From: Vicinamibacteria bacterium
Lineage (GTDB): Bacteria; Acidobacteriota; Vicinamibacteria; Fen-336; CBDFGD01
Assembly: GCA_965246965.1 (NCBI GenBank)
Contig: CBDFGD010000002.1
Location: 3,701,208-3,765,207 of the forward strand
Length of the DNA stretch: 64,000 bases
Direction: 5' to 3'
Position numbers and translations under genes: made by a program. The notes beneath the pieces are model-generated. The model was not told where the DNA came from. It did not search any database and saw only the letters and a list, made by a program, of their open reading frames with translations. Shown here in pieces: positions 2 through 49,174 of this stretch. Within the stretch, counting starts at the first letter, position 1, and the number at the start of each line of letters is the position of its first letter.

Positions 2-2179
2 GAAGGCATCCTCTCGAAAGCCGCCACGGCTCCGGTCGCCCTGAATCCCGATCTACCTGGCGAGATCGAGCGCATCATCAACACCGCCCTCGAGAAAGAC
101 CGTCAGACCCGCTATCAGCACGCGGACGACCTGCTCGCCGACCTGAAACGGCTGCGCCGGGATACGAGCTCGGGCGAGTCCCGGGCTCACGTGGCGGCGG
201 TGCCGGTGGCGACAGGAGCGGACGACGAGCTCTCCATGAGCCGCAGCGCCGTGAGGGCTGCGCGGCGCCATTGGAAGCTCGCGCTCCCCCTGGCAGCAGT
301 CGTCGGCGCGGCGACGATCGCGCTCGTCCTTCAGTCGCGCGAAGGGCCGGCTCTCACCGATCGCGACACGATCCTGCTGACAGACTTCACGAACACGACC
401 GGAGAAGACGTCTTCGACGAGACGCTGAAGCAGGCGTTGCGCGTCCAGCTCGAGTAGTCGCCCTTCCTCAAGCTCGTTGGTAGTGGGCAGGTCCGCTCCA
501 CCCTCGAGCGCATGAAGCGCTCTCCGGACGAGCGTCTCACGGTGCGGGTCGCCCGTGAGGTGTGTCAGCGAATCGGTGCGAAGGCTCAGATCGCCGGGTC
601 GATCGCCAAACTCGGTTCGAGCTACGTAGTCGCTCTCGACGCTCAGGAATGTGCTGTTGGCGAGTCTCTCGCCCTCGAGCAGGAACAGGCGGCAGGCCAG
701 GAGGCCGTGCTCGGCGCCCTGGGCGACGCGGCGCGGCGCCTGCGCGGGCGGTTGGGAGAATCCCTCGCTTCGGTCGCGAAGCTCGACGTCCCGATCGAGC
801 AGGCGACGACGGGCTCCCTCGAAGCGCTGAAGGCGTACAGCCTCGCGAACCAGGAGCGCAGCCGCGGCAACACGGAGGCCGCGATCCGGAGCTTCCGCCG
901 CGCGATCGAGCTGGACCCCGACTTCGCCGTGGCTCACGGAGAACTCGGCACTACCCTGGGCAACAGGGGAGAGCTTCGCGCGCAGCACGAACACTACCGC
1001 CGGGCCTTCGAGCTTCGCGACCGCGTCAGCGAGCTGGAGCGCCTCTACATCTCCGCGCACTACTACAACTCCGTCACCGGAGAGGTCGACAAGGCCCAGG
1101 CGGTTTACGAGCGGTGGAAGAAGACCTACCCGCGCGACTGGACGCCCGTGAACAACCTCTCGGTCCAATACCTCCGCTCGGGGGATCTCAATGCGGCTCT
1201 GGACGAAGCCCTCGCCGCGCTCGCCCTGGAGCCGGATCACGTGCTGCCGTACGCCAACGTCGCGGCGAGCTACTTCTTCATGGGGCGATTCGACGAGATG
1301 CGGGCCATCGTCGCGCGTGCCCACGGGCGCGGGCTAGACAGCTCGACGCTTCGGCTGTTCCTGTTCTGGGCCGGCGTGTGCGATGGTGCCGGCGACGAGC
1401 GCGGGGCCCAGCTGGCGGCGGAGGGTCACTCCGCCGAGCACCGGCTGCTGGGCGCCGCGGCCGTCGAAGCCTGGTCGCACGGGCGGCTGGAGGACTCTCG
1501 CACCTTGGGGGAGCGAGCGAGTCGTCTGGCGAGGGAAGCGGGAAACCCGGAGACCGGCCATCGCTGGACCCTCGACCTGGCAGCGGGGCATGCGCTGGTC
1601 GGGCGGGCTCGTGAGGCGCGCACGTTGATCGCGTCGGTCGAGGCCGACGACGGCGGCGAGGAATCGCTTCGCCTCGCGCTCGCGCGGGCCCTGGTCGGCG
1701 ATAGGGACGGCGCGTCGCAGCTGGGCGACGAGCTCAGCCAGGCTGCTCCGCACGACTCCTACCTGTAGAAGACCGGCTTGCCGTCGCTGCGAGGCGCCGT
1801 GGCTCTTCACTCCGGTGACCCGCGCGCCGCGGCCGACCATCTCGAGGCACTGGGCCCGCTCGACCTCGGCCAGCCCGGGCTGACCATCTACCTGCGCGCC
1901 CGCGCTCACCTGGCGTCGGGTGACGCGGAGCGCGCCCTGGCCGAATACAACTGGATCCTCGACCATCGCGGGCGCTACTGGCACAACCTCGGCCCCAGCA
2001 TCACCCTGCCCTTCCAGCAACTCGCGCTACTCGGCTCGGCCCGTGCGCACGCAGCCCTCGGCGACACATCTGCGGCGCGCCGCGCCTACGAGGACGTCCT
2101 CGCACTCTGGCAGGAAGCCGATCCCGACTTCGAGCCGGCCCTCCAAGCGAAGCGCGAGCTGACCGCGCTTGGCTCCTAG
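2..2179 (+). pseudogene. Ser/Thr protein kinase, C-terminal part (kinase C-lobe, one TM helix, long TPR-like periplasmic domain); 5' partial; two internal in-frame TAG codons
   Basis: One continuous frame (frame 2) gives ...LADLKRLRR..., a TM helix (LALPLAAVVGAATIALVL) and TPR-like repeats. The TAG at 455-457 falls inside a segment that reads as a continuous conserved motif (QLE*SPFL). Second in-frame TAG at 1766-1768; terminal TAG at 2177-2179. Confidence 0.6.
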
Positions 2180-2777
2180 CCGTTACTTCCGGGGGGGGGG
2201 TGCGCTTGACCGCCTCCTCGCGGTTGCGGATGTCCTCGTCCCAGTACTCCTCGAGCGGGACGCCGAGGCCGTCGATCACACGGTTGCACCAGGCGAAGAA
2301 CCCGGCGATGAAGTTCGCGGCTGCGATCGCCTGGTCGCTGTAGCCGACATTGCGCATCCTTTCCAGGAGCTCCTCGGTCACGTCCCACGGCGTCTCGGTG
2401 AGACGGATGACGTAGTCGAGCAGCGCCCGCTGCCGTGGCGCCACCGCCGCGGTATGCGGATTGCGTTTCAGCCCGCTGACCAGCTCCTCGTCGCCGCTCT
2501 CCCGGAGCAGCCCCCGCGCGTGGTGCTCGATTCAATAGTGGCAGCCGTTGAGCACCGAGACGGTGACCGCCACCATCTCGCGTTCGACGTAGGGGAGGTC
2601 ATTGGTACCGTGCATGACCCGCTTGTAGAAGAGCATCAGCGAGTCGAGCGCGTCCGGGACAGGCGAGTGGGCGAGGATGATGTTGTCGGTCGCGTCCCCG
2701 AGCCCGTAGCGCTCGTAGACCCGCTGGAGCTTGCCGCGCGCGTGCGCCGGTAGGGTGTGTTCGATCCACCACTTCAT
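2001..2777 (-). CDS. AhpD-like / carboxymuconolactone decarboxylase family protein with in-frame TGA at the second Cys of the CxxC motif (selenocysteine candidate); 3' end probably shorter (G10 homopolymer at 2191-2200)
   Basis: ATG at 2777-2775 overlaps the upstream TGA (ATGA). Reads MKWWIEHTLPAHARGK...VLNGCHY[TGA]IEHHARGLL, the CMD/AhpD CxxC..H active-site pattern with TGA (2532-2534) where the second Cys is expected. The Arg-rich tail after the 10-G run looks out of frame. Confidence 0.6.
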
Positions 2778-3250
2778 GGAGAGTCTCCGCTCGTGTCTTG
2801 GGTCGCCGCGCGAGCGGTGGATTCCTCCCTTTCCTCCATCACGCGATCGAAGCTCTTGCGCAGGTCCGGCAGGTTGGCGGCCAGCGCGGTGAACTCCCCC
2901 TTGGGCAGGCTCAGGCAGTCCGTCGGCTCCATGCAACGGATCGTGGCGGTGCGCCGGGTCTCGTTGAGCAGCGCCATCTCGCCAAACGTCTCTCCTTGCG
3001 AAAGCGTGGCCAGGCGCTGCTCAACGCCGCCGTCCAGGTGTTTGATGACCTCGACCTTGCCGCGCATGAGGATGTAGACGCGGTCGCCGAGGTCGCCCTG
3101 GCGGAACACCTCCTGGCCGGGTTCGAAGTGCTCGCGGTGGATGCCGCGCGTCCCCTGCAGCTTCAGCTGCACCAGCTCGCGGGGTAGGAACAGATCGTAG
3201 GTCCAGGAGGTCGCGACCTTCATGCGGTGGCCCCAGCCAGGCAGCTTCAT
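2774..3250 (-). CDS. Orphaned 3' fragment of a disrupted gene: NDH-2 C-terminal membrane-anchor segment plus cyclic-nucleotide-binding (CNB) domain
   Basis: N-terminus MKLPGWGHRMKVATSWTYDLFLPRELVQLK matches the conserved NDH-2 C-terminal tail motif (from memory); it is followed by a Crp/CNB-like fold (FGEMALL..RRTATIRC). The ATG lies inside the transposon target-site duplication and is in frame with ndh across the insertion. Confidence 0.65.
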   Translation of the reverse strand: MKLPGWGHRMKVATSWTYDLFLPRELVQLKLQGTRGIHREHFEPGQEVFRQGDLGDRVYILMRGKVEVIKHLDGGVEQRLATLSQGETFGEMALLNETRRTATIRCMEPTDCLSLPKGEFTALAANLPDLRKSFDRVMEEREESTARAATQDTSGDSP

Positions 3251-3311
3251 CAGACGGAATTTCCTAGTTTAAGGTCTCGACAAGTAGCCCTCCCCGTGCG
3301 AGGATCGTCTT

Positions 3312-4220
3312 GTGAGAGAACGATTCAACACGATGAAAGGACTACCTGTCATGAACATTCTACAGATTTTCGAGCGGTTCCCCACACAGCGCGATTGCAT
3401 CGCCCATCTCGAGCGCGCCCGATGGGGTGAGATCCCGCGTTGCCCCTACTGCACCTCCAACCGCACGGCGCGGCTTCAGCATCGACACCGCTGTTACGCG
3501 TGCAAGACCTCCTTCAGCGTCACGGTAGGGACAATTTTCCACCATACCCACCTGCCACTTCAGAAGTGGTTCCTCGCCGTCATGCTCATATTGAACGCGA
3601 AGAAGGGACTCTCAGCGCTTCAGCTCTCGCGGGATCTGAAGGTGAACAAGAACACGGCGTGGCGGATCTCGATGCAGATTCGAAAGGCGATGACGCAAGC
3701 CAATCAACGCCCCCTGCTGACTGGCATCGTCGAGATGGACGAGACCTATGTCGGCGGAAAACCTCGCAAAGGTGGCCCTCCGTCGAAACCTGGGCGCGGA
3801 ACGAAGAAGACACCCGTGATTGGGGCTATTGAACGCGGCGGCTCGGTCACCGCGACGGCGACGAAGAAGACCAGACTGCAGGGGCGTCATCTCCGCGCCT
3901 TCGTGAAGGATCGTATCGACACCACCACGGCCAGCTTGATCACCGATGAATACAAGGGCTACCTCGGCATGGCGAAGGTGCTCCCGCACGCCGTCATCAA
4001 ACACGCGCAGTGGTACGTCGATGGTCAGATTCACACGAACACGATTGAAGGCTTCTGGGCGCTCCTGAAACGCGGCATGTTCGGTCAGTTCCACAGCGTC
4101 AGCCGGAAACACCTGCAACGCTACGTGGACGAGTTCTGCTATCGCTACAATCTGCGGGGCGTCGAGCCCGATCATCAGTTTGCTCTCACCATCGACAGGG
4201 GATTAGGGGTGATCGGATGA
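3312..4220 (+). CDS. IS1595-family transposase (N-terminal zinc ribbon + DDE domain)
   Basis: CPYCTSNRTARLQHRHRCYACKTSF zinc ribbon; MDETYVGG and ...NTIEGFWALLKR DDE region typical of ISXO2-like IS1595 transposases. Confidence 0.85.
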   Translation: MRERFNTMKGLPVMNILQIFERFPTQRDCIAHLERARWGEIPRCPYCTSNRTARLQHRHRCYACKTSFSVTVGTIFHHTHLPLQKWFLAVMLILNAKKGLSALQLSRDLKVNKNTAWRISMQIRKAMTQANQRPLLTGIVEMDETYVGGKPRKGGPPSKPGRGTKKTPVIGAIERGGSVTATATKKTRLQGRHLRAFVKDRIDTTTASLITDEYKGYLGMAKVLPHAVIKHAQWYVDGQIHTNTIEGFWALLKRGMFGQFHSVSRKHLQRYVDEFCYRYNLRGVEPDHQFALTIDRGLGVIG

Positions 4221-5095
4221 GCATTCCGAAGGCCACGCACACCGGTGAACTCCAAATCGGACCCGTCACCATCGACTGCGCGGTGCTAGATAACGGGCTG
4301 AGAGTCCTGACTCAATCCGGCGTACTTCGTGCCTTAGATCGGTCGAGTCGTCCACAAGGAAAGGGAGCCCGTTTCGAACAGATTGCCCCTTTCCTCGCCT
4401 CTGACAACCTTAAACCCTACATAACAAAGGAACTAGCCGCTTCGAGCAGGCGCATCCGTTTCGCTGTACCAGGACGAGGACACGTTTACGGCTATGAAGC
4501 AGAACTGCTTCCGAAAGCCTGCAACGTATACCTCCAGGCGCGTGATGCCAGAGTGCTTCTTCCCTCGCAACAGCGTACAGCGGCCGCAAGTGATGTGCTG
4601 ATGCGCGGTCTAGCGATGGTAGGCATTGTCGCGCTCGTCGATGAGGCCACGAGTTACCAGGAAATCAGGGATAGGAAGGCCCTGAACAAGATCCTCGACA
4701 AGTACTTGCTGGCGGAACAAGCGAAATGGGCGAAGAGATTTCCTGATGAGTTCTACAAGCAAATCTTCCGGCTTCGAGGGTGGCAATGGCAGGGCATGAA
4801 GGTGAATAGACCGCAAGTTATTGGACGGTACACGAACGATTGCGTGTGGGATCGGCTCGCCCCTGGCGTCAGGAACGAACTTGAGAAACTGAACCCAAAG
4901 ACCGAAACAGGACGCAGGCGAGCCATGCATCACCAATGGCTGACGCACGATGCGGGCCATCCGGCGCTTCAGAAGCATATCAGCGGCGTGATGGCGCTCA
5001 TGCGGGCCTCGACCAAATGGGACAACTTCACGAGGCTGTTGCAACGTGCCTATCCGAAGATCAACACAAATCTAGAGCTACCCATCGACGAATGA
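4217..5095 (+). CDS. Hypothetical protein, passenger gene of the transposon (possibly phage-type P63C-like domain)
   Basis: ATGA overlap with transposase stop; 292-aa ORF in the low-GC island; DEATSYQEIRDRKAL motif. Assignment to a named domain is from memory only. Confidence 0.45.
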   Translation: MSIPKATHTGELQIGPVTIDCAVLDNGLRVLTQSGVLRALDRSSRPQGKGARFEQIAPFLASDNLKPYITKELAASSRRIRFAVPGRGHVYGYEAELLPKACNVYLQARDARVLLPSQQRTAAASDVLMRGLAMVGIVALVDEATSYQEIRDRKALNKILDKYLLAEQAKWAKRFPDEFYKQIFRLRGWQWQGMKVNRPQVIGRYTNDCVWDRLAPGVRNELEKLNPKTETGRRRAMHHQWLTHDAGHPALQKHISGVMALMRASTKWDNFTRLLQRAYPKINTNLELPIDE

Positions 5096-6342
5096 GTAGT
5101 CCGAACTGGGCGCACCAAACCATCTGGACGGGGGATTGCCTCGACATCCTACGCGGCATGAACTCGGCATCGGTCGATCTCGTCTACCTCGATCCGCCCT
5201 TCAACTCGAAAGCGAACTACGCCGCGCCCATCGGGAGCAAGGCGGCCGGTGCAGAGTTCAAGGACATCTGGACGCTCTCGGACGTGGACGTGGAATGGAT
5301 CAACCTCATCGAGGCGAAGCATCCAGCGCTGTACCGCGTTCTGCTCGCTGCAATGACCAACAGCGATAAGTCGTATCTCGCCTACATGGCCGCGCGGCTA
5401 CTCGAACTTCGCCGCGTACTGAAGCCTACCGGATCGCTCTTCCTCCACTGCGACCACACGATGAGCCACTACCTCAAGGTGGTCATGGACTCGATCTTTG
5501 GGCGACACCAGTTCAGGAATGAAATCGTTTGGGCATACTCTGGCTGGAACAAGCAATTACGGGCTCATATAGAGCGTCGGCATGACGTTGTGTTGTTCTA
5601 TGCGGCGTCGAAAGTATCGAAGTTTAACTACCCGACTCGCCCTTGGGATGGCAAGGCCGAATACGTCAAGACTCGGAAGCAGAAGGTCCGGGTTGAAGAC
5701 GATAGGCGAGAGTACGTGTTGTCCGATGCGGGGGGTGGAAAGCGCGTCAAGCGCTACCTCGACGAAGCCATGCAATACGGCGTCCCTTTGGACGACGTGT
5801 GGCGCATCGACAAGCTAAACAACTCGGACAGGGTGGAACGCACCGGCTACCCGACGCAAAAGCCGGTGGCTCTATTGGACCGGATCGTTAAGGCCAGCAC
5901 CAACGCCGGAGACATGGTATTGGACCCGTTCTGCGGGTGCGCGACGGCGTGTATCGCCGCCGAACAACTCCACCGGAATTGGGTAGGTATCGACGTCTCA
6001 CCGAAGGCGGCAGAGTTGGTCCGACAGCGTATGCGCGACGAGCTTGGCCTCTTCTACGATGGTGCTCACCGCACGGACATTCCATTTCGAACGGACCTTG
6101 GCAAGCTGCCACGCTACAACAGCCCAGAGAACCGCCGATGGCTGTACGGCGACCAGGGCGGTCACTGCGCGGGGTGTAACGCCCATTTCGAACCACGTCA
6201 TCTGGAAGTCGATCACATCATTGCCAGGCAGCGGGGAGGCACACACGCGCTGGACAATCTGCAACTGCTCTGCGGCAATTGCAACCGGATAAAAGGAAAC
6301 CGTGGCATGGACTACCTGAGAACCAAGTTACAGCTCAGGTAG
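5092..6342 (+). CDS. Beta-class amino-DNA methyltransferase (N6A/N4C, DPPF motif) fused to a C-terminal HNH nuclease domain
   Basis: Motif IV VDLVYLDPPFNS precedes motif I DPFCGCATA (beta order). C-terminus HCAGCN...EVDHIIARQRGGTHALDNLQLLCGNCN is an HNH motif. ATGA overlap with the upstream gene. Confidence 0.8.
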   Translation: MSSPNWAHQTIWTGDCLDILRGMNSASVDLVYLDPPFNSKANYAAPIGSKAAGAEFKDIWTLSDVDVEWINLIEAKHPALYRVLLAAMTNSDKSYLAYMAARLLELRRVLKPTGSLFLHCDHTMSHYLKVVMDSIFGRHQFRNEIVWAYSGWNKQLRAHIERRHDVVLFYAASKVSKFNYPTRPWDGKAEYVKTRKQKVRVEDDRREYVLSDAGGGKRVKRYLDEAMQYGVPLDDVWRIDKLNNSDRVERTGYPTQKPVALLDRIVKASTNAGDMVLDPFCGCATACIAAEQLHRNWVGIDVSPKAAELVRQRMRDELGLFYDGAHRTDIPFRTDLGKLPRYNSPENRRWLYGDQGGHCAGCNAHFEPRHLEVDHIIARQRGGTHALDNLQLLCGNCNRIKGNRGMDYLRTKLQLR

Positions 6343-6350
6343 CTTAACAA

Positions 6351-7604
6351 TCAAGACCGTAATCTAGGAAATTCCGTCATCAGATAGACCGTGCGCCACA
6401 ACCACCACGCCAGGAAGCCGGAGACCTGGAAGCCGAACACTTCGGCCACGGCGCTTCTGTGGCCGAGCGAGCCCATCTGACCGAGGCCCTTGAAGTCGTA
6501 GCGTTTCTTCGAGCCGCCGCGGACCGTGGCGACGACGTTGTGAGCGGCGATGGCCGCCTGGCGCGTCGCGTGCTGTGCGGTTGGGGGCGCGATACCGCCG
6601 CCTGGCGCCGGTACCCTCGCCGTGTCGCCGAGCGCCCAGACGCTGTGGCCGCTATCGACGTGCAGCTCTTGGTTGACGAGGAGCCTGCCGTTCTCGCTGC
6701 AGGGCAGCCCCAGCGCAGAGACCAGCGGATGAGGGAACGACGGCACCGTCGACACGAGCGTTCGCGTCGGGATGCGCTCCCCGCCCTCGAGGACTGCTTC
6801 GGTTCCGGTCGCGGCGTGGAGCCGCGTGAGCAGCCTCAGGTCGACACCGCGCTTCTTGAGCAGCCGTTGCGCGAACAGGGCCAGCTGCTCCGAGACCTCG
6901 GGAAGCACCCGGTCGCGCGAGTGCAGCAGGACGACGCGAAGCTCCGAAGCATCGATGCCGCGGTAGCTCTTGGCAACGCCGCGCACGAAGTCGTTCAGCT
7001 CGGCGACGACCTCGACGCCGGAGAAGCCGCCGCCCGCGACTACGAACGTCAGCAGCTGTCGACGCAGCTCCGGGTCCGACTCGATCGAGGCCTCCTCGAG
7101 GGCGTGGATGACGTGATTGCGGAGGGCGAGCGCGTCGCCCATGTTCTTGAACGGCATCGCGTGCTCGGGCAGGCCGCGCATGCCGCGAAAGTCCGTGACG
7201 GTGCCGAGGGCGACGACCAGGTGGTCGAAGGGGATCACGTGAGGCTGGGGCCGGAAACCCGGCGCCGTGATGATCTGCTTGTGCTAGACGTCGACGCGCT
7301 CGATCTCGCGCACGTGAATGTCGGTGCGCGGCAGCATGCGGCGCAGCGGGCTGACGATGTCCAGGATGCCGACGCCACCCGAGATCACCTCGGGCAGCAT
7401 CGGCTGGAAGACGAAGTAGTTCTCCTTGTTGACGAGGGCGATCTCGAAATCGTCCCCGCGTCCGAGCCGCTTCTCCAGCTCGAGGGCCGTGTAGACGCCG
7501 GCAAAGCCGCCGCCGAGGACCACGACTCGCGGCTTGCGTGGAGCCGTCAGTGGGCGACTCCGATCAACGGCGGCCACGGAGACACAGAGACGCAGAGAAC
7601 GCAC
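6351..7604 (-). pseudogene. ndh: Type II NADH dehydrogenase (NDH-2, ndh) with in-frame TAG and transposon-truncated C-terminus
   Basis: VVVLGGGFAGVYTA dinucleotide fold and second GGGFSGVE motif. In-frame TAG at 7284-7286 (VDV*HKQII) with the same frame continuing. Last 9 codons (MTEFPRLRS*) are encoded by the transposon IR-R. Confidence 0.7.
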
Positions 7605-7820
7605 GGAGGAACGGCAGGCTTCGATCGGTCGTCATCCCGATCGAGGGCATGTGGATCCCGATCGGTCCGCGGCGATCGACTCGCACCACGAGGTGCGACC
7701 GTGTTGCACTCCAAGGCGCGGCCGCCTGGCTTCTTCGAGACGCGGTCAAAGCTGGCTCGTTCTCCGTGTCTCTGTGCCTCTGTGGCTCACCAGATCGTCA
7801 GCTGCTCACCCGGGGTTGGG

Positions 7821-8987
7821 CTACGCCGGCAGTCCGCGCTGGATGACGTGCTCCATCTCCTCGGCGAAGACATCGACCTCGTCCAGTGTGGTGTAGATGT
7901 TGGGCGTGACGCGAATTCCCTGGAATTCATCATGGACGATCGGCACGACGAAGACGCGTCGCTGCTTCCACAGATGCTCCTTGAGCGCCCGCGGGTCCAC
8001 TCCCTCGATGTTCACTGTGGCGATCGCGCCCGCCATCTCCGGATCGAGGCTGGGGAGGAGCCGGACCCTGGGGTGCTCCTTGAGCCGCAGCGCCCAACGG
8101 TCGCGCAGGTAGCGCAGCCGCGCCGCCTTGCGCTCGACGCCGATGCCGTTGTGGAAGGTCAGCGCCTCGGCGACGGCGTTGTGGTTGGCAGCGGGATGGG
8201 TGCCGATCTCCTCGTACTTGCGGACGTCGTCATCCATCTTCCCCGGAGCGGCCATCAGCGGCCACAGCTTCGGGACCTTCTCCTTGCGGACGTAGAGGAA
8301 GCCGCTGCCGATCGGCGCCAGCAGCCACTTGTGCAGGCTCGTGCCGTAGTAGTCGCAATCGAGATCGTCGCGCGTGAACGGGAAGTGGGCGAAGGCGTGG
8401 GCGCCGTCGACGATGACTTCGATGCCGTGCTCGCGCCCCAGTCGGGCGATCTGCTTGATCGGGAAGATCTGGCCCGTGAGGTTGGTGATGTGGCAAACGA
8501 GGATGACCCTGGTCTTCGGCGTGATCGCCCGTTCGAAGCGCTGCGCGAGGTCGTCCATGCTCGGCGGCGGAGTGGGGAACGAGATCGTCTTGAGGACCAG
8601 GCCCTCGCGACGCTCGCGCTGGCGCCAGGTCGTCAGCATGCGCCCGTAGTCCTGATTGGTCGTCAGGATCTCGTCGCCCGGCTCGAGGATTTCCCACATC
8701 GTGTACACGGGACACTCGTTGGAGCGATCCAGATAGCGCTTGAGCGCCTCGTGAACGTCGGCTGGCGACGGAGAGACGCCCCCGTTGTTGAGGTTGATGA
8801 TCGTGCGATCGACCGTGAAGGCCTGTTGGATCTCTCGCCAGTAGTCCTCGTCGGCCGCGACCGCTTCGGGGCCGCGTCCGGACGTGGCGCGGCTCGCCGC
8901 CTGGACCCGCGCGAGCCCGCCTTCGCGAAGCACCGAAACCGCTGCGGCACTGGCGGCCGCCCCCATGAAACTGCGCCTCGTCGTCAT
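7821..8987 (-). CDS. Class V aminotransferase / cysteine-desulfurase-like PLP enzyme with twin-arginine (Tat) signal peptide
   Basis: MTTRRSFMGAAASAAAVSV Tat motif; SLHKWLLAPIGSGFLYV PLP-lysine region; full-length 388 aa; TAG stop. Confidence 0.8.
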   Translation of the reverse strand: MTTRRSFMGAAASAAAVSVLREGGLARVQAASRATSGRGPEAVAADEDYWREIQQAFTVDRTIINLNNGGVSPSPADVHEALKRYLDRSNECPVYTMWEILEPGDEILTTNQDYGRMLTTWRQRERREGLVLKTISFPTPPPSMDDLAQRFERAITPKTRVILVCHITNLTGQIFPIKQIARLGREHGIEVIVDGAHAFAHFPFTRDDLDCDYYGTSLHKWLLAPIGSGFLYVRKEKVPKLWPLMAAPGKMDDDVRKYEEIGTHPAANHNAVAEALTFHNGIGVERKAARLRYLRDRWALRLKEHPRVRLLPSLDPEMAGAIATVNIEGVDPRALKEHLWKQRRVFVVPIVHDEFQGIRVTPNIYTTLDEVDVFAEEMEHVIQRGLPA

Positions 8988-9111
8988 GGTCCCTCCTCGA
9001 TACGATTCGGATGCCGGATCATAGCGCTTGCCCGAGCTCGATCCCGCGCCGCGGTCATTGGCTCGCCAGGCCGGGAGAGCGTCGCATTCACGTCAGCCAC
9101 GCGCCGGGTCT

Positions 9112-10950
9112 TCAGCCACGCGCGAAGAAGGCGAGGATCGCGAAGTAGGCGACGATCCAGAACAGCGTCGCTCCGACGGGAAGCCGATCGTTGTCGGGGC
9201 TGTAGAGACCGTCCGGCGCGGCCGCGCGTAGCCAGGCCAGCGGATCTCGTAGTCGTCGCTCGACGGTCGCGGCCCACGACGAGGATGCGCGTTCGAGGGC
9301 GGCGCCGCCTCGCGCCGCGAGCTGGGTCAGTGCCACACCGAGCCGCCCACCGGGGCGCCTGTAGAACCAGTCGGTATCGAGGCTGATCGTCTTGGGACCG
9401 CCGAGGCTGTCCCGCAGCCACCAGAAGGCGAGTCCCGTTCCGGCCAGCAGGTGCAGCGATGCGAGGACGTGGCCAGACGTGTAGGGGTGATACCCGGCGC
9501 GGAACGGGAGCCACGCATACAGCAGGCCGGGCTGCACGCCGATCGCGAAGCAGAGCGTGGCGGCGATCGCCATCGCGGCCAGCATGTTGCGCGGAACCGG
9601 CTTGACCTCGGCGTCGCAGCGCTCGCCGAAGAAGACGAAGTAGGGCAGCTTGAGGCCGGTATGAAGGAATGTGCCTACACTGGCCACGAGCAGCAGCAGC
9701 TCGACTCCTTCGCGACCGGCGGCGGCGGCGGCCGACACGATCATCGACTTGCTGACGAAGCCGTTGAACAGGGGAAAGCCCGAGATAGACACGGCCCCGA
9801 CGCAATACAGCAGCAGCACCGCCCGCATTCGCGGGGCGAGCCCTCCCAGCTCCGTGAGGCGGTGGCGTCCGGTAGCGTGGATCACCGCTCCGGCGCCCAT
9901 GAAGAGCAGCCCCTTGTAGAGGATGTGGCAGAAGGCGTGCGCCGCGGCGCCATCGAGGCTCAGCGCCGTGCCGAGGCCCACGCCGGTGACCATGTAGCCG
10001 ACCTGGCTGACGATGTGGTACGCGAGCAGCCGGCGGATGTCGTTCTCGAGCACCGCGTAGACGACGCCGTACAAGGCCATCGCCACTCCGAGCCCAACGA
10101 GGACATCGGCGCCGGGGAAGACCCGGATCAGGACGTAGACAGACGTCTTCGTCGCGAACGCGCTCAAGAAGACGGACGCCGTCACCGAAGCGCGCGGGTA
10201 CGCGTCCGTCAGCCAGGCGTGGAGCGGCGGGATCGCCGCGTTGATCGCGACGCCGCCGAGGATCAGCCAGAACGCGACCGGATCCTGCTCGCGGCTGAGG
10301 GGCGAGACCTGCATGCCGGCTCCTTGCCCGACCGTTCGCATGATGCCGGCGAGCAGCAGCGCTCCGCCGCTCGCGTGCAGCATCAGATAGCGCAACCCCG
10401 CACCGCGCGCGTCGTCTTCCTGGCCGAGCCAGATGAGGACCGCCGAGGCGACGGTGATCAGCTCCCATCCTGCGAACAAGGTGATCCAGTCGCCCGCGAA
10501 AACGACCAGCAGCGACCCGGTCGCGGCGACCAACACGGCCACGTGCTCGCGGCGCCTTTCGACGTGCATCGCGTAGAGGGAGCCGATCACGGTGATCAGC
10601 GTGAAGACCAGACCGAAGAGCCAGCTCAGCCGATCGACGTAAAGAGGCGCCAGATCCCACGCGCCCAGGTGAAGCAAGGACGACTGACCCGGGGCGAGAT
10701 TCAGGACCATGGCGGCGCTCGTGAGCGCGCCTGTGAGCATGAGCGCGCCGCCGCCACGACCGCGGAGCGCGACGAGCAGGGCGCCCGTCGAGACGAGCGC
10801 GACAGCGGGATGGAGGCTCACGGTGACTCGTCGTCGTAGTAGCTCTCGGGCCGCTGCAGCCAGCGGCGTCCGAGCCACTTGGAGATCCAGACGATCGCCG
10901 CGCAGCCGACGAGGCCGAGGACCAGGTCGAAGCCCGGCAGACTGCGCCAA
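9112..10950 (-). CDS. Mrp-type antiporter subunit A/D-like (NuoL/M/N family proton-pumping subunit); true start uncertain
   Basis: Multi-TM ORF with the NuoL/MrpD pattern (WLTDAYPRASVTASVFLSAFATKTSVY..., HAFCHILYKGLLFMGAGAV); last gene of the Mrp-like cluster. Confidence 0.7.
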   Translation of the reverse strand: MAQSAGLRPGPRPRRLRGDRLDLQVARTPLAAAARELLRRRVTVSLHPAVALVSTGALLVALRGRGGGALMLTGALTSAAMVLNLAPGQSSLLHLGAWDLAPLYVDRLSWLFGLVFTLITVIGSLYAMHVERRREHVAVLVAATGSLLVVFAGDWITLFAGWELITVASAVLIWLGQEDDARGAGLRYLMLHASGGALLLAGIMRTVGQGAGMQVSPLSREQDPVAFWLILGGVAINAAIPPLHAWLTDAYPRASVTASVFLSAFATKTSVYVLIRVFPGADVLVGLGVAMALYGVVYAVLENDIRRLLAYHIVSQVGYMVTGVGLGTALSLDGAAAHAFCHILYKGLLFMGAGAVIHATGRHRLTELGGLAPRMRAVLLLYCVGAVSISGFPLFNGFVSKSMIVSAAAAAGREGVELLLLVASVGTFLHTGLKLPYFVFFGERCDAEVKPVPRNMLAAMAIAATLCFAIGVQPGLLYAWLPFRAGYHPYTSGHVLASLHLLAGTGLAFWWLRDSLGGPKTISLDTDWFYRRPGGRLGVALTQLAARGGAALERASSSWAATVERRLRDPLAWLRAAAPDGLYSPDNDRLPVGATLFWIVAYFAILAFFARG

Positions 10951-11023
10951 CCTCCGGTCTCGGCGGCCGAAGCGGCGCGCGCGAGGAGTGCGGCGGGGAG
11001 GGTGATTGCCGCTACGGTCCTGC

Positions 11024-12529
11024 TCATGGTCCGACGGCCCAGCGAACCGGCGCGATCACGACGTCTTCGGCGGCGATCGTTGCGAGCTGGTACAGATCGA
11101 ACAGGGCGTCGGGGTAGATGCCCAGCACGACGCTCGCTCCCGCGGTCGCCGCGATCGGGAGCCAGAGTCGCTTATCCCGTGGCTCGAGGGGCTGGGTCGG
11201 CACGTACTCGTCGAAGAAGCCGGTCCGCACGATCGGGATGAGATAGGCCAGATTCAGCACGCCGCTCAGGACGAGCAGCGGGACGAACAGCGCCCGACCT
11301 GCTTCGACGGCGCCCAGGCCGAGGCTCCACTTACTGACGAAGCCGACAAAGAGCGGCACGCCGGCCAACCCCAGAGCAGCGACGCCGAAGGCCGCGAAGG
11401 TGATGGGCATGTGTCGCCCCAACCCCGCGAGGCCGCTGATGAAGCCGCGCCCCGATGTCCGCTGGATCGCCCCCGCGCAGAAGAACAGCGTGATCTTCAT
11501 GAAGGCGTGGGCGGCGATGTGGAAGAAGGCGCCGAGCAGCGCCAGAAACGAGCCCAGAGCAGCGCCGAGCAGGATGTACGAGAGCTGGCCGATGGTCGAG
11601 TAGGCGAGGCGTCGCTTGAGGTGGTCCTCGCCGAAGGCCCGCAGCGACGCCAACAGGATCGTCGTTCCGGCGAGCGCCGCCAGCGCCACGTCGAGACCCA
11701 ACCCACGCATCAGATCGACGCCGAATACGAAACCCACCACGCGCAGACAGCCGAACACGCCGGCCTTGACGACCGCCACCGCGTGCAGCAGCGCGCTCAC
11801 CGGCGTAGGCGCCACCATTGCGGCCGGCAGCCAGCCGTGGAGGGGCATCAGCGCTGCCTTGACCCCCAAGCCCCCGATGAAGAGCGCGAACAGCGCGACG
11901 CCAGTGAGGTCCGAAACGGCACCGTCGAGAAAGCCGCCTCCGCGAAAGCCCTCGCCGGGAAGGATCCAGGATGTCCAGACCACCGCCACCAGCAACAGCT
12001 GCCCGCCGGTCAACGTGTAGAGCAGATACTTTCTCCCGGCGGCCACCGCCTCCTCGGTCCGGTTGAAGACGACCAGCGGGTAGGTGGCGAGCGTCAACAG
12101 CTCGTAGAAGACGAAGAAAGTCGGCAGGTTCGCTGCGAACGCCACGCCGATCGTCGCGCCCAGGCAAAGAGCGAAGCTGGCGAAGTAGCGCGGCTTTCGC
12201 GCCTCGTCCTCGACCTGGATGTAGCCGAGCGAGTAGACGGAGGTCAAGAGCCAGAGCGTCGAGGCGACGAGGGCAAAGAGCAACCCGAGCGCGTCGACGC
12301 GCAGCTGCAGGTCGTGACCCGGAAAGAGCGGCCAGGCGGGAGACGCCACTGTCCCACCGGCCCGGACGACGGGGAGCAGCGAGACGACGACGCCCAGCTT
12401 GACCACGGCGGCGACCAGCGTCCACAGCATCGCGAGCCCCGCCAGGCGCCGCGTCGCGAGGATGAGCACGGCGGCGATCAGCGAAACGGTGACGGCGATC
12501 ACGGGTCGCCAGGAGACCAGCTCGATCAC
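11024..12529 (-). CDS. Mrp antiporter subunit D-like (NuoM/N family), second paralog
   Basis: WLPAAMVAPTPVSALLHAVAVVKAGVFG and HIAAHAFMKITLFFCAGAI motifs; 501 aa; overlaps neighbour by 4 bp. Confidence 0.8.
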   Translation of the reverse strand: MIELVSWRPVIAVTVSLIAAVLILATRRLAGLAMLWTLVAAVVKLGVVVSLLPVVRAGGTVASPAWPLFPGHDLQLRVDALGLLFALVASTLWLLTSVYSLGYIQVEDEARKPRYFASFALCLGATIGVAFAANLPTFFVFYELLTLATYPLVVFNRTEEAVAAGRKYLLYTLTGGQLLLVAVVWTSWILPGEGFRGGGFLDGAVSDLTGVALFALFIGGLGVKAALMPLHGWLPAAMVAPTPVSALLHAVAVVKAGVFGCLRVVGFVFGVDLMRGLGLDVALAALAGTTILLASLRAFGEDHLKRRLAYSTIGQLSYILLGAALGSFLALLGAFFHIAAHAFMKITLFFCAGAIQRTSGRGFISGLAGLGRHMPITFAAFGVAALGLAGVPLFVGFVSKWSLGLGAVEAGRALFVPLLVLSGVLNLAYLIPIVRTGFFDEYVPTQPLEPRDKRLWLPIAATAGASVVLGIYPDALFDLYQLATIAAEDVVIAPVRWAVGP

Positions 12530-13983
12530 TGCAGGCCCGCAGGCAGCGCCGCGCGGATCACGTGCGCCACGATCGGCTGATTGAACAGGCCGACGAGCGC
12601 GATGCCCGCGGCGAGCGTCGCGATCGGGGCGAGCATCGCGGCGGGCAGCTCCGCGGCGGACGCCCCCTCCGGCGCGGGACGCAGATAGACGCGCTCGAGC
12701 AGGCGGAAGCAGTAGCCTGCCGTGAGCAGCGAGCTCACCACGAGCGCGAAGACGGCGACGCCGTCACCCGCCTCGATCGCACCGATCAGGAGGTAGTACT
12801 TACTGAAGAAGCCCGCCGTCGGGGGCAGGCCGATCAGCGACAGCGTCGCGACGACGAAGGCCGCGCTGGTGGCGGGCATGCGACGGGACAGGCCGGAGAA
12901 ACGATCGAGTCGCACCTCGTGGCGCGAGCCGGCGACGCCGCCCGCGATCAGGAACAGACAGGATTTCATCAGCCCGTGGTGGAGGACGTGCAGCAGCGCG
13001 CCGGTCAGCCCGGCGGCGTTGCCGAGCGCCACGCCGAGCAGAATCGCGCCCATCTGCGCGACGCTCGAGTAGGCCAGCATGCGCCGCACCTCCCGTTGCG
13101 CGATCGCCAGGGCGGAACCCGCGAGGATGGCGACGCAGGCCGCCCAGCTCAGCAGAGGCAGCGCGTGGGCGGCGGGTCCGGCGGCGTCGAACACCCCGTA
13201 CAGGATGCGGATCAAGGCGAAGACGCTGACCTTGGCCATGACCCCCGACGTGAACGCCGCGACGGGCGTCGAGGCGTAGCTGTAGACGTCCGGCAGCCAG
13301 CCATGCAGCGGGAACAGCGCCGCCTTCACCGACAGGCCGACCGTGATGAGCCCCAGCGCCACGGCTAGCGCGGACGTCGCGCCGCTCGCGGGGAGGCGAG
13401 CGGCGACGTCGGCCATGTTCAGCGAGCCGGTCAGCGCGTACAGGTAGCCGACGCCGAGGAGATAGAGGCTGCCGGCCACGGTGCCGACGAGCAGGTAGCG
13501 GAAGCCGGCGACGGCGGCCCTGTCTCCGCCCGAAGCGGTGAGCGCGTACGCCGCCAGGCCGGAAATCTCGAGAAAGACGTAGAGGTTGAACAGGTCGCCG
13601 GTGAGGGTCATGCCGACGAGGCCGCCGACGAGCAGCAGGTAAAGCGAGGCGAACGCCCCTGCCGAGATCCCCGCTCGCGCCGCGTCGCGGCCGGAGTAGA
13701 TCCACACGAGCAGAGCGATCAGCTGTAAGAGCGCCGCGAGGGCGGCCGCCACCGGGCCGGCGATCAGCTCGATGCCCCAGGGCGGCGGCCAGCCTCCGAC
13801 GAAGTGGCGCACGCTGCCCAGCTTCAACGTCTCGCCCAGCAGGCCGCAGCACGTAACGAGGCCGGCGACCAGGCTCCAGAGCGTGACGAGACGTACCGCC
13901 CGCGCGGAGCGCAGTCCGACCAACGGAGCGGCGAGCGCGCCGATCAGCGGGACGACGATCGCGAGCGGGAGCGCGCTCGTCAA
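12526..13983 (-). CDS. Mrp antiporter subunit D-like (NuoM/N family), first paralog
   Basis: WLPDVYSYASTPVAAFTSGVMAKVSVF and HVLHHGLMKSCLFLIAGGV motifs; 485 aa. Confidence 0.8.
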   Translation of the reverse strand: MTSALPLAIVVPLIGALAAPLVGLRSARAVRLVTLWSLVAGLVTCCGLLGETLKLGSVRHFVGGWPPPWGIELIAGPVAAALAALLQLIALLVWIYSGRDAARAGISAGAFASLYLLLVGGLVGMTLTGDLFNLYVFLEISGLAAYALTASGGDRAAVAGFRYLLVGTVAGSLYLLGVGYLYALTGSLNMADVAARLPASGATSALAVALGLITVGLSVKAALFPLHGWLPDVYSYASTPVAAFTSGVMAKVSVFALIRILYGVFDAAGPAAHALPLLSWAACVAILAGSALAIAQREVRRMLAYSSVAQMGAILLGVALGNAAGLTGALLHVLHHGLMKSCLFLIAGGVAGSRHEVRLDRFSGLSRRMPATSAAFVVATLSLIGLPPTAGFFSKYYLLIGAIEAGDGVAVFALVVSSLLTAGYCFRLLERVYLRPAPEGASAAELPAAMLAPIATLAAGIALVGLFNQPIVAHVIRAALPAGLQ

Positions 13984-14345
13984 CGTTCGCGCATTCGTTG
14001 CAGAAGCTCGTGCTCATCGAGAGTGCCGTAGCGCCGCGAGATGCGGATCAGCAGTGCCAGAGCCACGCCCGTCGTGCTGACCGCGACGACGATCGCCGTC
14101 AGCATCAGCGTGTGAGGGAGCGGGTTCGCGTAGTCACTCGCGCGCAACAATGACTCGCCGTGCGCGGCCACGGGCGGCGCGGCCTGAGTTTTGTGGCCCA
14201 GGAGTATGAAGAAGACGATCACGCCGACCTGGAGGATGTTGAGCGCCATCAGCTTGCGGAGCAGGTTGGGCGTCTGCACCAACCCGAGCAGACCCAGCGC
14301 TACCAGCGTGACGGTAGCCAGGTAGGCGGCGTCCGAGGCGCTCAT
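13980..14345 (-). CDS. Mrp antiporter subunit C (NuoK-like)
   Basis: 121-aa 3-TM protein, LMALNILQVGVIVFFILLG pattern; operon position between B and D. Confidence 0.8.
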   Translation of the reverse strand: MSASDAAYLATVTLVALGLLGLVQTPNLLRKLMALNILQVGVIVFFILLGHKTQAAPPVAAHGESLLRASDYANPLPHTLMLTAIVVAVSTTGVALALLIRISRRYGTLDEHELLQRMRER

Positions 14346-15073
14346 GCGGCCGCGTCGTCGTCCGAAACGGGGGCGAGGCAGTAGAAGATCAGGGACAGCA
14401 CGCCGGTGACGGCAATGAACACGCTGGCCTCGATGACCAGGGTCGAGAGCGCTCGCTTGGCCGCTCCCGCGGCCGGCAGTGGCAACGCCGAGTAGTCGAG
14501 GTAGCTGCCGCCGAATGCGAGCGCGGCCGCGCCGATCCCGGCGTACAAGAGAGCGCCGCCGCAGGCGAGCGCGACGGCCGCCTCGGGCCTCAGTCCCCAG
14601 GCGACGTCCCGGCCGTGGACCAGACGGACGAGGATCAAGGCGCCAGCCAACACCGCGCCGCCCTGAAAGCCACCCCCGGGGCTGTCGTGTCCGTGGGCGA
14701 GGACGTAGGCGGCGAAGAGCATCAGAAACGGCGTGAGCAATCGCACGGCGGCGTCCAGCACCGGGCTGCCGAAGGCCGCCGGCGCCGGCCGTCGCTCCGC
14801 GGTCGCGTGGCCGCCGAGGAGCAGCAGCATGCAGGCGATTCCGGCGGCGAAGACGACGAGCGTCTCCCCGAGCGTGTCGAAGCCGCGATAGTCGGCGAGC
14901 ACGGCGGTCACCATGTTGTCGGCGCCGGTCTCCGCCCGAGCCCTCTCGATGTAGCGCGGGGAAACGTGGCGGGACGCGGGCGAGTCCGGATCACCGAGCG
15001 ACGGTAGGTCGCGGGCCGCCCAGAACAGCAGCGCCGCCGCCGGCAGCGCTGCCAGCCAGGCCGCCCGCCTCAC
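14342..15073 (-). CDS. Mrp antiporter subunit B (MnhB-like)
   Basis: Contains the MnhB signature ...ETGADNMVTAVLADYRGFDTLGE.... Candidate GTG start at 15073 overlaps the stop of the upstream DUF4040 ORF (GTGA). Confidence 0.65.
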   Translation of the reverse strand: MRRAAWLAALPAAALLFWAARDLPSLGDPDSPASRHVSPRYIERARAETGADNMVTAVLADYRGFDTLGETLVVFAAGIACMLLLLGGHATAERRPAPAAFGSPVLDAAVRLLTPFLMLFAAYVLAHGHDSPGGGFQGGAVLAGALILVRLVHGRDVAWGLRPEAAVALACGGALLYAGIGAAALAFGGSYLDYSALPLPAAGAAKRALSTLVIEASVFIAVTGVLSLIFYCLAPVSDDDAAA

Positions 15074-15333
15074 CGGCGAGCCCTCCGACCGGTGCGGTCG
15101 ATGGCGACGACGAAGAAGACCGTCGTGATGGCGCCACCGATGACGGCCTCCGTGAGGGCGACGTCTACGGCGCCGAGCACGGCAAAGAACAGCGCCGAGA
15201 AGAAGCTGAACGCGCTGAAGACGAGGACCGCCGCGAACAGGTCGCGGACGAGCAGCACGGCGACGGCGCATGCGAGCATGCACACGAGAAACAGCGCGGC
15301 GAGGGGCTCCGTCACTCGGGACTCCGACGCCAC
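15070..15333 (-). CDS. DUF4040-like small membrane protein (MnhB N-terminal / MbhD-like)
   Basis: 87-aa 3-TM ORF ...AVDVALTEAVIGGAITTVFF... typical of the MrpA-C-terminal/MrpB-N-terminal domain. May be fused to the downstream mrpB if a frameshift is present. Confidence 0.55.
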   Translation of the reverse strand: MASESRVTEPLAALFLVCMLACAVAVLLVRDLFAAVLVFSAFSFFSALFFAVLGAVDVALTEAVIGGAITTVFFVVAIDRTGRRARR

Positions 15334-15611
15334 GGCTTCAGGCCGGCTCGATACGCCGCGCGGCCCAGCGCGTGTGTCGCCGTGGGGTTGGCGAGCGCGA
15401 CGAAGAGCAGGATCAACAGGATCTTGCCGCTCTCGAGCACGAAGCCTTCGAGCGCGGCGATTCCGAGCGCGACGAGGGCCATGCCGAGGGTGTCGTTCTT
15501 GCCGAGCACGTGAAGGCGCGTGTAGAAATCGGGGAGGCGGATGACGCCGACGGCGCCCGTGAGGAGAATCAGGGTGCCGGCCGCCAGCAGCGGGAGGGCG
15601 ACCACGCTCAT
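15312..15611 (-). CDS. Mrp antiporter subunit G
   Basis: 99 aa, LLTGAVGVIRLPDFYTRLHVLGKNDTLG motif of MnhG. Confidence 0.75.
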   Translation of the reverse strand: MSVVALPLLAAGTLILLTGAVGVIRLPDFYTRLHVLGKNDTLGMALVALGIAALEGFVLESGKILLILLFVALANPTATHALGRAAYRAGLKPWRRSPE

Positions 15612-15877
15612 TCGGCCGCCTTGCGGATCTCGACGTAGCGCGCCAGCGCCAGCGTTCCGATGAAAGCGATCATCGCGTAGGCGAGCGCGATGTCGAGGTA
15701 GACGTCGAGGCGATCGCTCAACTCTCCGACCAGCAGCAGCAATACGATCGTCTTGGTGAGCATGACACCGAGGCCGCTGAGTCGATCCCAGATCGTTGGG
15801 CCACGCAGCACCCGGTACAGCGCCGCGAGCAGTCCGAGCAGGATCGCGCCGCCCGCGGCTTGAAGGGCGTACGTCAT
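15608..15877 (-). CDS. Mrp antiporter subunit F
   Basis: 89 aa, YRVLRGPTIWDRLSGLGVM pattern of MnhF. Confidence 0.75.
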   Translation of the reverse strand: MTYALQAAGGAILLGLLAALYRVLRGPTIWDRLSGLGVMLTKTIVLLLLVGELSDRLDVYLDIALAYAMIAFIGTLALARYVEIRKAAE

Positions 15878-16425
15878 TTCGTTTCGGGGGGCGCCTCGAA
15901 CAGCGCTGCGACTCTCGTGACCAGGGGGTCGGAGGCGTCGATCCGATCCCCTCGCGTCAGCGCGTGGACGACGTACTCGTCGCCCTCGACGTCGAGGGTC
16001 ACCGTGCCGGGAGTCAGCGTTATCGAGTTGGCCAGCGTGAGCCTGGCGAGATTGTGAGGCAGCGGGCGGGTGACGCGAACGACGTCAGGATCGATAGGCA
16101 GGGACGGGTGAATCACCACGTAAGCGACCTGCAGGCTCGCCTGGACGATGCGCACGATCAGCCACGGTATGTAGCCGAGCAGGCGCATCCAGGGGTGGCC
16201 CGCGAGCGGGTGCTCGCCGGGGTTTCCGATCGGGGGTGCGAGCAGCAGCAGCGGCTGCGTCGCCACCGCGATCCCGAGGGCGCTCAGGATGCCCAGGCCG
16301 AGATGGAATGGATCGGCCCGGCCCGAAAGGAGCAGCCAGAAGAAGAGCAGAACGCCCGCGAGCGGGAGTACGTGCCGACCGAAACGGCGTGGGATCCGGC
16401 TCGGGGCCGGCTGGCGCTGGCTCAC
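15874..16425 (-). CDS. Mrp antiporter subunit E
   Basis: 183 aa, two N-terminal TM helices and soluble C-domain resembling MnhE; first gene of the cluster. Confidence 0.65.
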   Translation of the reverse strand: MSQRQPAPSRIPRRFGRHVLPLAGVLLFFWLLLSGRADPFHLGLGILSALGIAVATQPLLLLAPPIGNPGEHPLAGHPWMRLLGYIPWLIVRIVQASLQVAYVVIHPSLPIDPDVVRVTRPLPHNLARLTLANSITLTPGTVTLDVEGDEYVVHALTRGDRIDASDPLVTRVAALFEAPPETK

Positions 16426-30200: not shown

Positions 30201-30340
30201 CTGAATGACGCCTATGACGATGGCGCAGGCGATCCCGGCTCGCCATCGGATCAGGCCGATCAGGCTGCACGACAGGACCAGCGCGCCGAAGAGGCCCTGG
30301 AGGCTGAAGGGGTTGAGGAATCCGAAATCCAAAGACGCGC

Positions 30341-30383
30341 CTAGTGGCCCGTAACAGGGAGATCGGTGCCAGCGAGACCGCCA
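30341..30383. repeat. Partial copy (left arm only) of the CTAG-bounded hairpin element family
   Basis: CTAGTGGCCCGTAACAGGGAGATCGGTGCCAGCGAGACCGCC matches the left arm of copy C (62429-62470) with 2 mismatches, followed by a degenerate core start (gccgaggccctgg). Confidence 0.6.
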
Positions 30384-45768: not shown

Positions 45769-45793
45769 GTTAGAGGCAACTCTTTGCTATACT
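45765..45793 (+). promoter_or_regulatory. Sigma70-like promoter upstream of the response-regulator gene
   Basis: TTAAGT (45765-45770) - 17 nt - TATACT (45788-45793) in an AT-rich intergenic stretch; GAGGGG SD-like 8 nt before the TTG start at 45833. Confidence 0.4.
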
Positions 45794-45832
45794 GAGACAT
45801 ACATCGTTTGCCGCCTTTCGCGAGGGGCGCTC

Positions 45833-46885: not shown

Positions 46886-46894
46886 GGAGGAATC

Positions 46895-49156: not shown

Positions 49157-49174
49157 ACCGGGAGCGGGCGTCGC

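Follow-up and report, generated by a model that had tools for sequence, protein, structure and literature searches.

The ndh-CNB locus

The window analysed here, a 64,000-nucleotide (64-kb) stretch of contig CBDFGD010000002.1 from a Vicinamibacteria bacterium (phylum Acidobacteriota), carries on its minus strand a single-copy gene, ndh-CNB, that is interrupted by a mobile element. In its intact form, the gene is predicted to encode an NADH dehydrogenase of type II (NDH-2) fused at the C-terminus to a cyclic-nucleotide-binding (CNB) domain; the element is an insertion sequence (IS) of the IS1595 family, which lies at codon 409, inside the membrane anchor of the protein, so that the CNB domain and the second half of the anchor are cut off from the flavoprotein core. 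The same reading frame contains a TAG nonsense codon at position 107 and, because insertion and nonsense codon fall in one gene, the locus is read as a doubly inactivated pseudogene and not as two working genes. The features are collected in Table 1.

Regarding its boundaries, the element spans 3,122 bp between two copies of the 8-bp target-site duplication TCATCAGA. The initial annotation had reported a 7-bp duplication, TCATCAG; this string does occur at 3247-3253 and 6377-6383, as a subset of the true 8-bp repeat. The left end of the element reads C-GGAATTTCCTAGTTTAAGGTCT (also written C-GGAATTTCCTAG), and the inverted right end AGACCGTAATCTAGGAAATTCC-G (also written CTAGGAAATTCC-G); the first 14 positions of these terminal inverted repeats all match, and the repeats are imperfect past that point. 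In the whole window there are exactly two occurrences of the 22-bp end pattern, inverted relative to each other, against none expected by chance, and the element has a guanine-plus-cytosine content of 57% vs 68% for its flanks. Its termini read CGGAATT, which fits the form CGGnnTT of the ends of the ISNha5 subgroup, and the element is a possible member of this subgroup.

As for the genes of the element, the three of them lie on the plus strand and are closely packed, with ATGA stop/start overlaps. The first encodes the transposase, which matches DDE_Tnp_IS1595 (PF12762, E = 8.3e-32, profile positions 2-153 of 153), a zinc ribbon (PF12760, E = 6.6e-8, 32.8 bits vs a cut-off of 25.4) and the NCBIfam model NF033547 (202.6 bits vs a cut-off of 75); its true start is likely the ATG at 3351, because the homologs align from residue 14. 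The second product has a P63C domain (PF10546, E = 2e-34) and matches phrog_2384, a family of unknown function, over its full length (E = 4e-103). The third joins an N6/N4 DNA methyltransferase (PF01555, E = 3e-44; PADLOC MTase_II, E = 1e-66) to an HNH nuclease domain (PF01844, E = 3e-13). Eight-bp duplications and a transposase with zinc-finger and DDE domains are typical of the IS1595 family, in which the zinc ribbon is absent only in the IS1016 group (PMC8101967). The family assignment made in the initial annotation is thus borne out by the two transposase domains, the inverted ends and the 8-bp duplication.

Table 1. Features of the interrupted ndh-CNB gene and of the inserted element, in window coordinates (position 1 is the first nucleotide of the window).
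Feature	Position	Strand	Remarks
Detached 3' part of ndh-CNB, 158 codons	2774..3250	-	Second half of the NDH2_C anchor, linker, complete CNB domain
Left copy of the TCATCAGA duplication	3247..3254	.	Holds the second copy of the Met-409 codon (3250-3248, minus strand)
IS1595-family transporter IS	3255..6376	+	Inverted ends; blastn alignment with L001 breaks at both ends
Transposase	3312..4220	+	Zinc ribbon and DDE_Tnp_IS1595; likely start ATG 3351
P63C-domain protein, 292 aa	4217..5095	+	Start overlaps the transposase stop (ATGA)
N6/N4 DNA methyltransferase with C-terminal HNH nuclease, 416 aa	5092..6342	+	ATG overlaps the stop of the P63C gene
IS-derived tail TEFPRLRS and stop	6351..6377	-	Right IS end; open reading frame 6351-7238 ends ...WRTVYLMTEFPRLRS
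Right copy of the TCATCAGA duplication	6377..6384	.	Holds the Met-409 codon (6380-6378, minus strand)
ndh-CNB pseudogene, codons 108-409	6378..7283	-	Rest of the Pyr_redox_2 core, GGGFSG, AQHATRQ region, first half of the NDH2_C anchor
TAG nonsense codon, codon 107	7284..7286	-	Translation; protein and DNA alignments; coding-composition scan
ndh-CNB pseudogene, codons 1-106	7287..7604	-	First FAD-binding GxGxxG motif, GGGFAG

Reconstruction of the gene and its lesions

Excision of positions 3254-6383 in silico yields, as the initial annotation had stated, an in-frame join of ndh with the downstream open reading frame (ORF); the resulting minus-strand frame has 1,701 nt (from 7604 to 2774), and the join reads ...WLWRTVYLM/KLPGWGHRMKV... 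(...FLAWWLWRTVYLM/KLPGWGHRMKVATSW...). Pfam finds Pyr_redox_2 at residues 26-350 of the reconstruction, NDH2_C at 375-431 and cNMP_binding at 448-533, and the NDH2_C match (PF22366, 35.5 bits vs a cut-off of 27.7) crosses the junction between residues 409 and 410. The junction region aligns to orthologs with no gaps, and the NDH2_C region to residues 385-429 in the C-terminal region of the mycobacterial NDH-2 structure 9mqy. The GTG at 7604 is only the earliest possible start, since similarity to orthologs begins at about 7541, both in protein alignment with P0001-P0108 and in tblastn.

The fused architecture is that of the relatives. A homolog search over 5.8 billion proteins returned thousands of them, and the architecture was read in the best 120: all are single proteins of 530-570 aa with Pyr_redox_2, Pyr_redox, NDH2_C and cNMP_binding, and no case with ndh and CNB as separate genes was seen among these 120. 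The named hits of this NDH-2-CNB class belong to Acidobacteriota (Blastocatellia, Pyrinomonadaceae). The best homolog, P0001, is 91% identical and is encoded at locus L001, on a 6.5-Mb contig that is syntenic with the window through a Mrp-type antiporter, an aminotransferase, ndh-CNB, a CMD-family gene and a kinase/TPR gene. When L001 is compared with the window by blastn, one block ends at 6377 and the next starts at 3253, so that the alignment breaks exactly at the ends of the IS; the two blocks overlap by 7 bp in L001, which is the unoccupied target, and the empty site is present in both syntenic genomic loci, L001 and L002. Together, the in-frame join, the NDH2_C match across it, the uniformly fused homologs and the empty site confirm that the gene was an NDH-2-CNB fusion before the insertion.

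The second lesion is independent of the IS, as judged from the alignments. Codon 107 is TAG in the window and GCG in L001 and L002, with no gaps on either side; the corresponding residue is Ala in P0001 and Glu in P0002, and the stretch IERVDV-stop-HKQIITAPGF aligns, again gap-free, to IERVDVARKEIVTAPGF of the ortholog. The IS-encoded tail TEFPRLRS attributed in the initial annotation to the ndh product is indeed found at the right end of the element, and the nonsense codon upstream had been missed: because of it, a product with such a tail would not be made from the normal start. The detached ORF does open at an ATG (3250-3248), which was said to have been created by the duplication; this ATG is the native codon for Met-409, which forms part of the duplicated 8 bp and was thus copied rather than created. 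It is unlikely that the detached CNB ORF is expressed, because a scan of positions 2700-7800 for sigma-70 promoters gave no sites, and hence none facing this ORF, and because the ORF is antisense to the transposase gene.

As for the timing of the loss, the Nei-Gojobori ratio of nonsynonymous to synonymous substitution rates (dN/dS), computed for the window against L001 at a dS of about 0.5, is 0.107 over the whole reconstruction, and 0.114 and 0.093 for its two halves; intact neighbours have values of 0.12-0.27. By this measure, purifying selection acted on the gene through nearly all the time since the divergence from the L001 genome and, because dN/dS is low in both halves and neither half has a frameshift, the comparison suggests that the inactivation is recent. 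Judged from one sequence, either lesion may have come first, and the gene may have been already dead through its TAG codon when the IS arrived, the insertion being then a neutral hit in a decaying region. The adjacent kinase/TPR gene, with two in-frame TAG codons, suggests a local relaxation of selection independent of the IS, in line with such a history; on the other side, the lack of frameshifts in ndh-CNB, and a dN/dS as low as that of its intact neighbours, would make any decay before the insertion brief. We give this order of events a substantial, if clearly less than even, probability. The recent loss of ndh-CNB and the nonsense codons in the kinase gene would fit ongoing gene decay in this genome.

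The predicted intact protein

The N-terminal 420 residues of the reconstructed protein find only NDH-2 enzymes as their best matches among solved structures, with E-values from 2.5e-43 to 1e-25: mycobacterial 9mqy (2.5e-43, including the C-terminal anchor), Bacillus subtilis YjlD, Caldalkalibacillus thermarum 4nwz, Staphylococcus aureus 5na1 and yeast Ndi1 (4g9k), with 9pxk also among the top hits; sulfide:quinone reductases are far weaker matches, at about 1e-10. The two GxGxxG motifs, GGGFAG (residues 31-36) and GGGFSG (191-196), are invariant in the orthologs, and Pyr_redox_2 (PF07992) is matched with E = 4e-33. On these grounds, the intact protein is a predicted NDH-2-type NADH dehydrogenase. 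Like the C. thermarum and mycobacterial enzymes 4NWZ and 9MQY, to which it is similar over the full length (E = 1e-38 to 2.5e-43), it has two Rossmann GxGxxG folds and a C-terminal amphipathic anchor, which here runs through the insertion point; unlike them, it has about 130 extra C-terminal residues, corresponding to the CNB domain, and a different reading of the quinone-site motif. The AQxAxQ motif, AQIAIQ in 4nwz, is aligned with AQHATRQ, with the final Gln replaced by Arg and then followed by Gln; the family consensus, from 56 orthologs, is AQHAIRQ. The solved-structure search gave no entry with both the NDH-2 and the CNB parts.

Regarding the CNB domain, its match to PF00027 (E = 1.7e-23, 82.8 bits vs 27.5) covers profile positions 2-87 of 89. 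In the phosphate-binding cassette, FGEMALLNETRRTAT, the residues F, G, E, M, A ... R, A do not vary among the same 56 orthologs, and T hardly does. Of the solved structures, the CNB domains of cGMP-dependent kinases come nearest, and matches were also obtained to those of cAMP-dependent kinases, Epac, CRP and SthK.

Ten orthologous loci were examined for class III cyclase genes (PF00211) near ndh-CNB. At L092, where the ortholog is P0034, such a gene (7613-8992) lies on the same strand and shares 11 nt with the 3' end of ndh-CNB; at L094, another (4874-5962) is 38 nt upstream, also on the same strand; and at L098 (719-1948) and L100 (737-1972) the cyclase gene is found four genes upstream on the same strand, in one common arrangement. 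The ten loci thus include three independent arrangements with a cyclase. The pattern is suggestive of a lineage-specific link between cyclase and dehydrogenase.

Two known architectures invite comparison. The NDH-2s of the external face of plant and fungal mitochondria carry an EF-hand insertion that binds Ca2+, and constitute a precedent for an NDH-2 core with a built-in second-messenger sensor; the sensor of the NDH-2-CNB proteins differs in being a C-terminal CNB domain, and in occurring in bacteria. The second is the bacterial class "Bact_Pyrredox", defined by tandem CNB domains on a pyridine-nucleotide-disulphide oxidoreductase domain and by the cassette GEMGLISGRRRGATVRA (Kannan et al. 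2007, PMC2246266). The NDH-2-CNB protein resembles it in combining an oxidoreductase domain of this type with a CNB in a bacterial protein, and was rejected as a member because it has a single CNB match (448-533), placed after the anchor, and a different cassette, GEMALLNETRRTATIRC.

The module formed by anchor and CNB domain was also found, as one match starting from residue 1 of the 158-aa fragment and with 56-61% identity, in three longer proteins: it is C-terminal in P0133 (661-801 of 806 aa) and P0139 (647-791 of 794 aa), and internal in P0160 (415-552 of 755 aa). These may be NDH-2-CNB variants with extra domains. A search of a representative library with the same fragment returned mostly multi-CNB repeat proteins, and was unusable for sizing the family.

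Relatives of the element

The element is assigned, from its gene content, to the "transporter IS" (tIS) of the IS1595 family because it is an IS that carries passenger genes, according to the concept described in PMC11891212. It is similar to IS1595-family tIS such as ISNha5, as far as the latter is presented where PMC11891212 cites Siguier et al. 2009, in having the same transposase domains, an 8-bp duplication, inverted repeats and passenger genes; its own features with respect to ISNha5 are the constant P63C partner and the optional methyltransferase-HNH cargo described below. A plasmid search with its transposase gave remote relatives only, the best plasmid-borne transposases being about 40% identical or less.

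In representative genomes, the 22-bp end motif GGAATTTCCTAGTTTAAGGTCT was found in 89 stretches (loci L003-L091), with interiors that diverge. The hosts are labelled Acidobacteriota, Alpha- and Gammaproteobacteria, Dehalococcoidia, Binatia, Nitrospinales, Thermodesulfobacteriota and Saprospiraceae, among others, and several of their names (Poriferihabitaceae, Spongiihabitans) point to sponge symbionts, a habitat that is deduced from the names only. Related copies, for instance those at L023 (2670-5794), L082 (3840-6196) and L069 (from 4627), share 68-84% identity in their internal DNA and 74-84% in the transposase protein, and their sizes go from 1,968 to 5,623 bp. Perfect 8-bp duplications in the same register as in the window are present in 13 of the 20 complete relatives from public genomes, and the 8-mer targets are mostly AT-rich.

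The P63C gene follows the transposase gene in about 30 related loci, and the methyltransferase-HNH gene is found in only about 13; to judge from these gene orders, transposase and P63C gene are the constant core of this IS group, with the methyltransferase-HNH gene as optional cargo. In one 5.6-kb copy (L060, 2216-7836), the methyltransferase-HNH gene is split into an N-terminal part (element positions 1882-2994) and an HNH part (5056-5613), about 2 kb apart and with other ORFs in between, which suggests a nested insertion or a gain of cargo.

Interpretation

In itself, the insertion is an ordinary gene disruption, and the NDH-2-CNB family is abundant in databases under generic names. The sequence shows that an IS1595-family transporter IS transposed into the coding sequence of an NDH-2-CNB fusion and duplicated 8 bp of its target, and that the same gene took a TAG at codon 107 and is a pseudogene; it is inferred that its inactivation is recent and that the ancestral enzyme was under the control of cAMP or cGMP. 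Taken as a whole, we consider this explanation very probable. In the intact ancestral protein and in its many living orthologs, the cyclic nucleotide would bind the C-terminal CNB domain and would allosterically tune either the transfer of electrons from NADH to quinone or the engagement of the enzyme with the membrane; its source, in certain lineages, would be the class III cyclase encoded beside ndh-CNB. Given the direct fusion of CNB domain and amphipathic anchor, the most plausible route would be a ligand-dependent shift of the anchor or of the quinone site. Such regulation may be inferred from the intact cassette and from the cyclase neighbours of some orthologs.

In bacterial respiration, NDH-2 is a major point at which electrons enter the chain, and in pathogens it is a drug target; little is known about its fast post-translational control. 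If true, the proposed regulation would be a direct second-messenger switch on respiration, acting without transcription; a family that at times occurs in an apparent operon with a cyclase is thus a testable case of second-messenger control of respiration.

A competing possibility is that the C-terminal CNB fold senses a ligand other than cAMP or cGMP, or serves only for dimerisation, so that the enzyme is not regulated by cyclic nucleotides. In the course of their diversification, domains with this fold have come to bind a range of ligands (Kannan et al. 2007, PMC2246266), most orthologous loci are devoid of an adjacent cyclase, and the residue after the cassette Arg varies among orthologs (T, S, N or A). 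Conversely, the canonical cassette G-E-x-A-L...R-x-A-T, with its phosphate-binding Arg, is kept in the 56 orthologs, true receptors of cGMP and cAMP are the solved structures most similar to it in sequence, and cyclase genes adjoin or overlap ndh-CNB in two independent lineages; a different ligand, or none, appears unlikely.

Several further points weigh against the favoured explanation, that is, a recently lost, cyclic-nucleotide-controlled NDH-2. The six other loci of the ten examined, including L001, the closest relative of the window, have no cyclase gene in the fetched flanks, and none lies near the gene in the window. The AlphaFold2 model of P0001, built from 56 sequences, has a mean predicted local distance difference test score (pLDDT) of 76 with values below 50 at residues 356-425; since these low values fall on the anchor and linker themselves, the model gives no allosteric geometry and lends the proposed route no structural support. 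The quinone motif reads AQHATRQ, so that the quinone chemistry may differ from that of the typical enzymes, and full-text searches retrieved, from the library searched, no paper, experimental or other, on an architecture combining NDH-2 and CNB. Finally, the junctions and the TAG codon are those of the assembled sequence; insertion and TAG may not be fixed in the population, and a base-calling error might account for the TAG.

This last point leads to the possibility of an assembly artefact or a minority variant, with the IS mis-joined into ndh, or present in few cells, of an organism that effectively has an intact gene. IS elements often cause mis-joins in metagenome-assembled genomes; in addition, neither the CNB ORF of the window nor its P63C protein has an exact match in the public gene-position index, and there is no independent assembly to confirm the junctions. 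Nevertheless, a perfect 8-bp duplication at the register of 13 independent relatives points to true transposition and not to a chimeric join, the ends of the element occur as one copy only in the 64 kb, and both flanks keep the gene order of L001; for these reasons, we deem an artefact very improbable. Very improbable, too, is a functional split into a soluble, truncated NDH-2 with the IS tail and a small stand-alone anchor-plus-CNB protein started from the duplicated ATG. In its favour, ORFs 6351-7238 and 2774-3250 are open, the second begins with an ATG and dN/dS is low in both halves. Against it, any product begun at the normal start loses the FAD-binding N-terminus through the TAG at codon 107; the flavoprotein part would keep only half of the membrane anchor; the IS presents no promoter-like site directed toward the CNB ORF, whose transcription would run antisense through the IS; and, at a dS of 0.5, the low dN/dS is mostly a record of the time before the insertion.

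Two wider readings can be proposed, one of the gene and one of the element, whose probability we place just short of even. In the first, NDH-2-CNB would be a widespread class of respiratory NADH dehydrogenases in which a cyclic nucleotide, bound at the anchor-fused domain, directly gates the input of electrons to the quinone pool, with the signal coming in some lineages from a co-transcribed class III cyclase; in the second, a lineage of transporter IS with transposase, P63C protein and variable methyltransferase-HNH cargo would have spread across at least 8 bacterial phyla that share a habitat. The spread of the element across phyla with variable cargo would make it a tractable case of a shared mobilome.

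Neighbouring genes and other features of the window

A Ser/Thr-kinase/TPR gene (2-2179, plus strand) is cut by the start of the window and aligns to residues 233-958 of a 958-aa protein of L001; its in-frame TAG codons lie at 455-457 and 1766-1768, where L001 has Gln and Asn. Therewith, three amber codons are found in the two genes that flank the IS, the kinase/TPR gene and ndh, while the Mrp and aminotransferase genes are intact. A scan of the window for widespread in-frame stops, as expected from recoding or poor assembly, found only ndh, the kinase/TPR gene and the TGA of the CMD gene affected; two other runs of same-frame ORFs (45725-48076 and 48590-49846) are ordinary adjacent genes.

The CMD/AhpD-like gene (2180-2777, minus strand) has an in-frame TGA at 2532-2534, within the motif C-H-Y-TGA-I-E-H-H, at the second position of a CxxC redox motif. 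The TGA and the next 27 nt are identical in L001 and L002, where gene callers split the gene into ORFs of 81 and 88 aa; read through the TGA, the product matches TIGR01926 ("peroxidase-related enzyme") across it, with 120 bits vs 81.8. The protein is probably a selenoprotein, as this conserved codon and the match across it indicate; the folding of the 81 nt downstream of the TGA, examined for a selenocysteine insertion sequence, is no better than that of shuffled sequences (z = 0.76). Near the 3' end of the gene there is a run of ten G (2190-2199; ten C on the gene strand), and the ORF runs on to 2001, overlapping the convergent kinase gene, because this run shifts the TAG of L001 out of frame; either an error in the length of the homopolymer or a genuine frameshift may lie behind it.

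One gene upstream of ndh-CNB, a multi-subunit cation:proton antiporter cluster of the Mrp/Mnh type occupies 9112-16425 on the minus strand; such a cluster has the same placement in L001 (1033-8346) and at the locus of a 73%-identical ortholog (L097, 1-2682).

An Rfam scan of the whole window gave no matches. Finally, a repeat of about 164 bp at 62431-62594, with terminal inverted repeats CTAGTGGCCCGTAACAGGG ... CCCTGTTACAGGCCACTAG, resembles a miniature inverted-repeat transposable element; partial copies are at 42214-42318 and 30340-30382, and a 96%-identical copy lies at a non-syntenic position of L001 (16492-16655), in the genome represented by L001 and L002.

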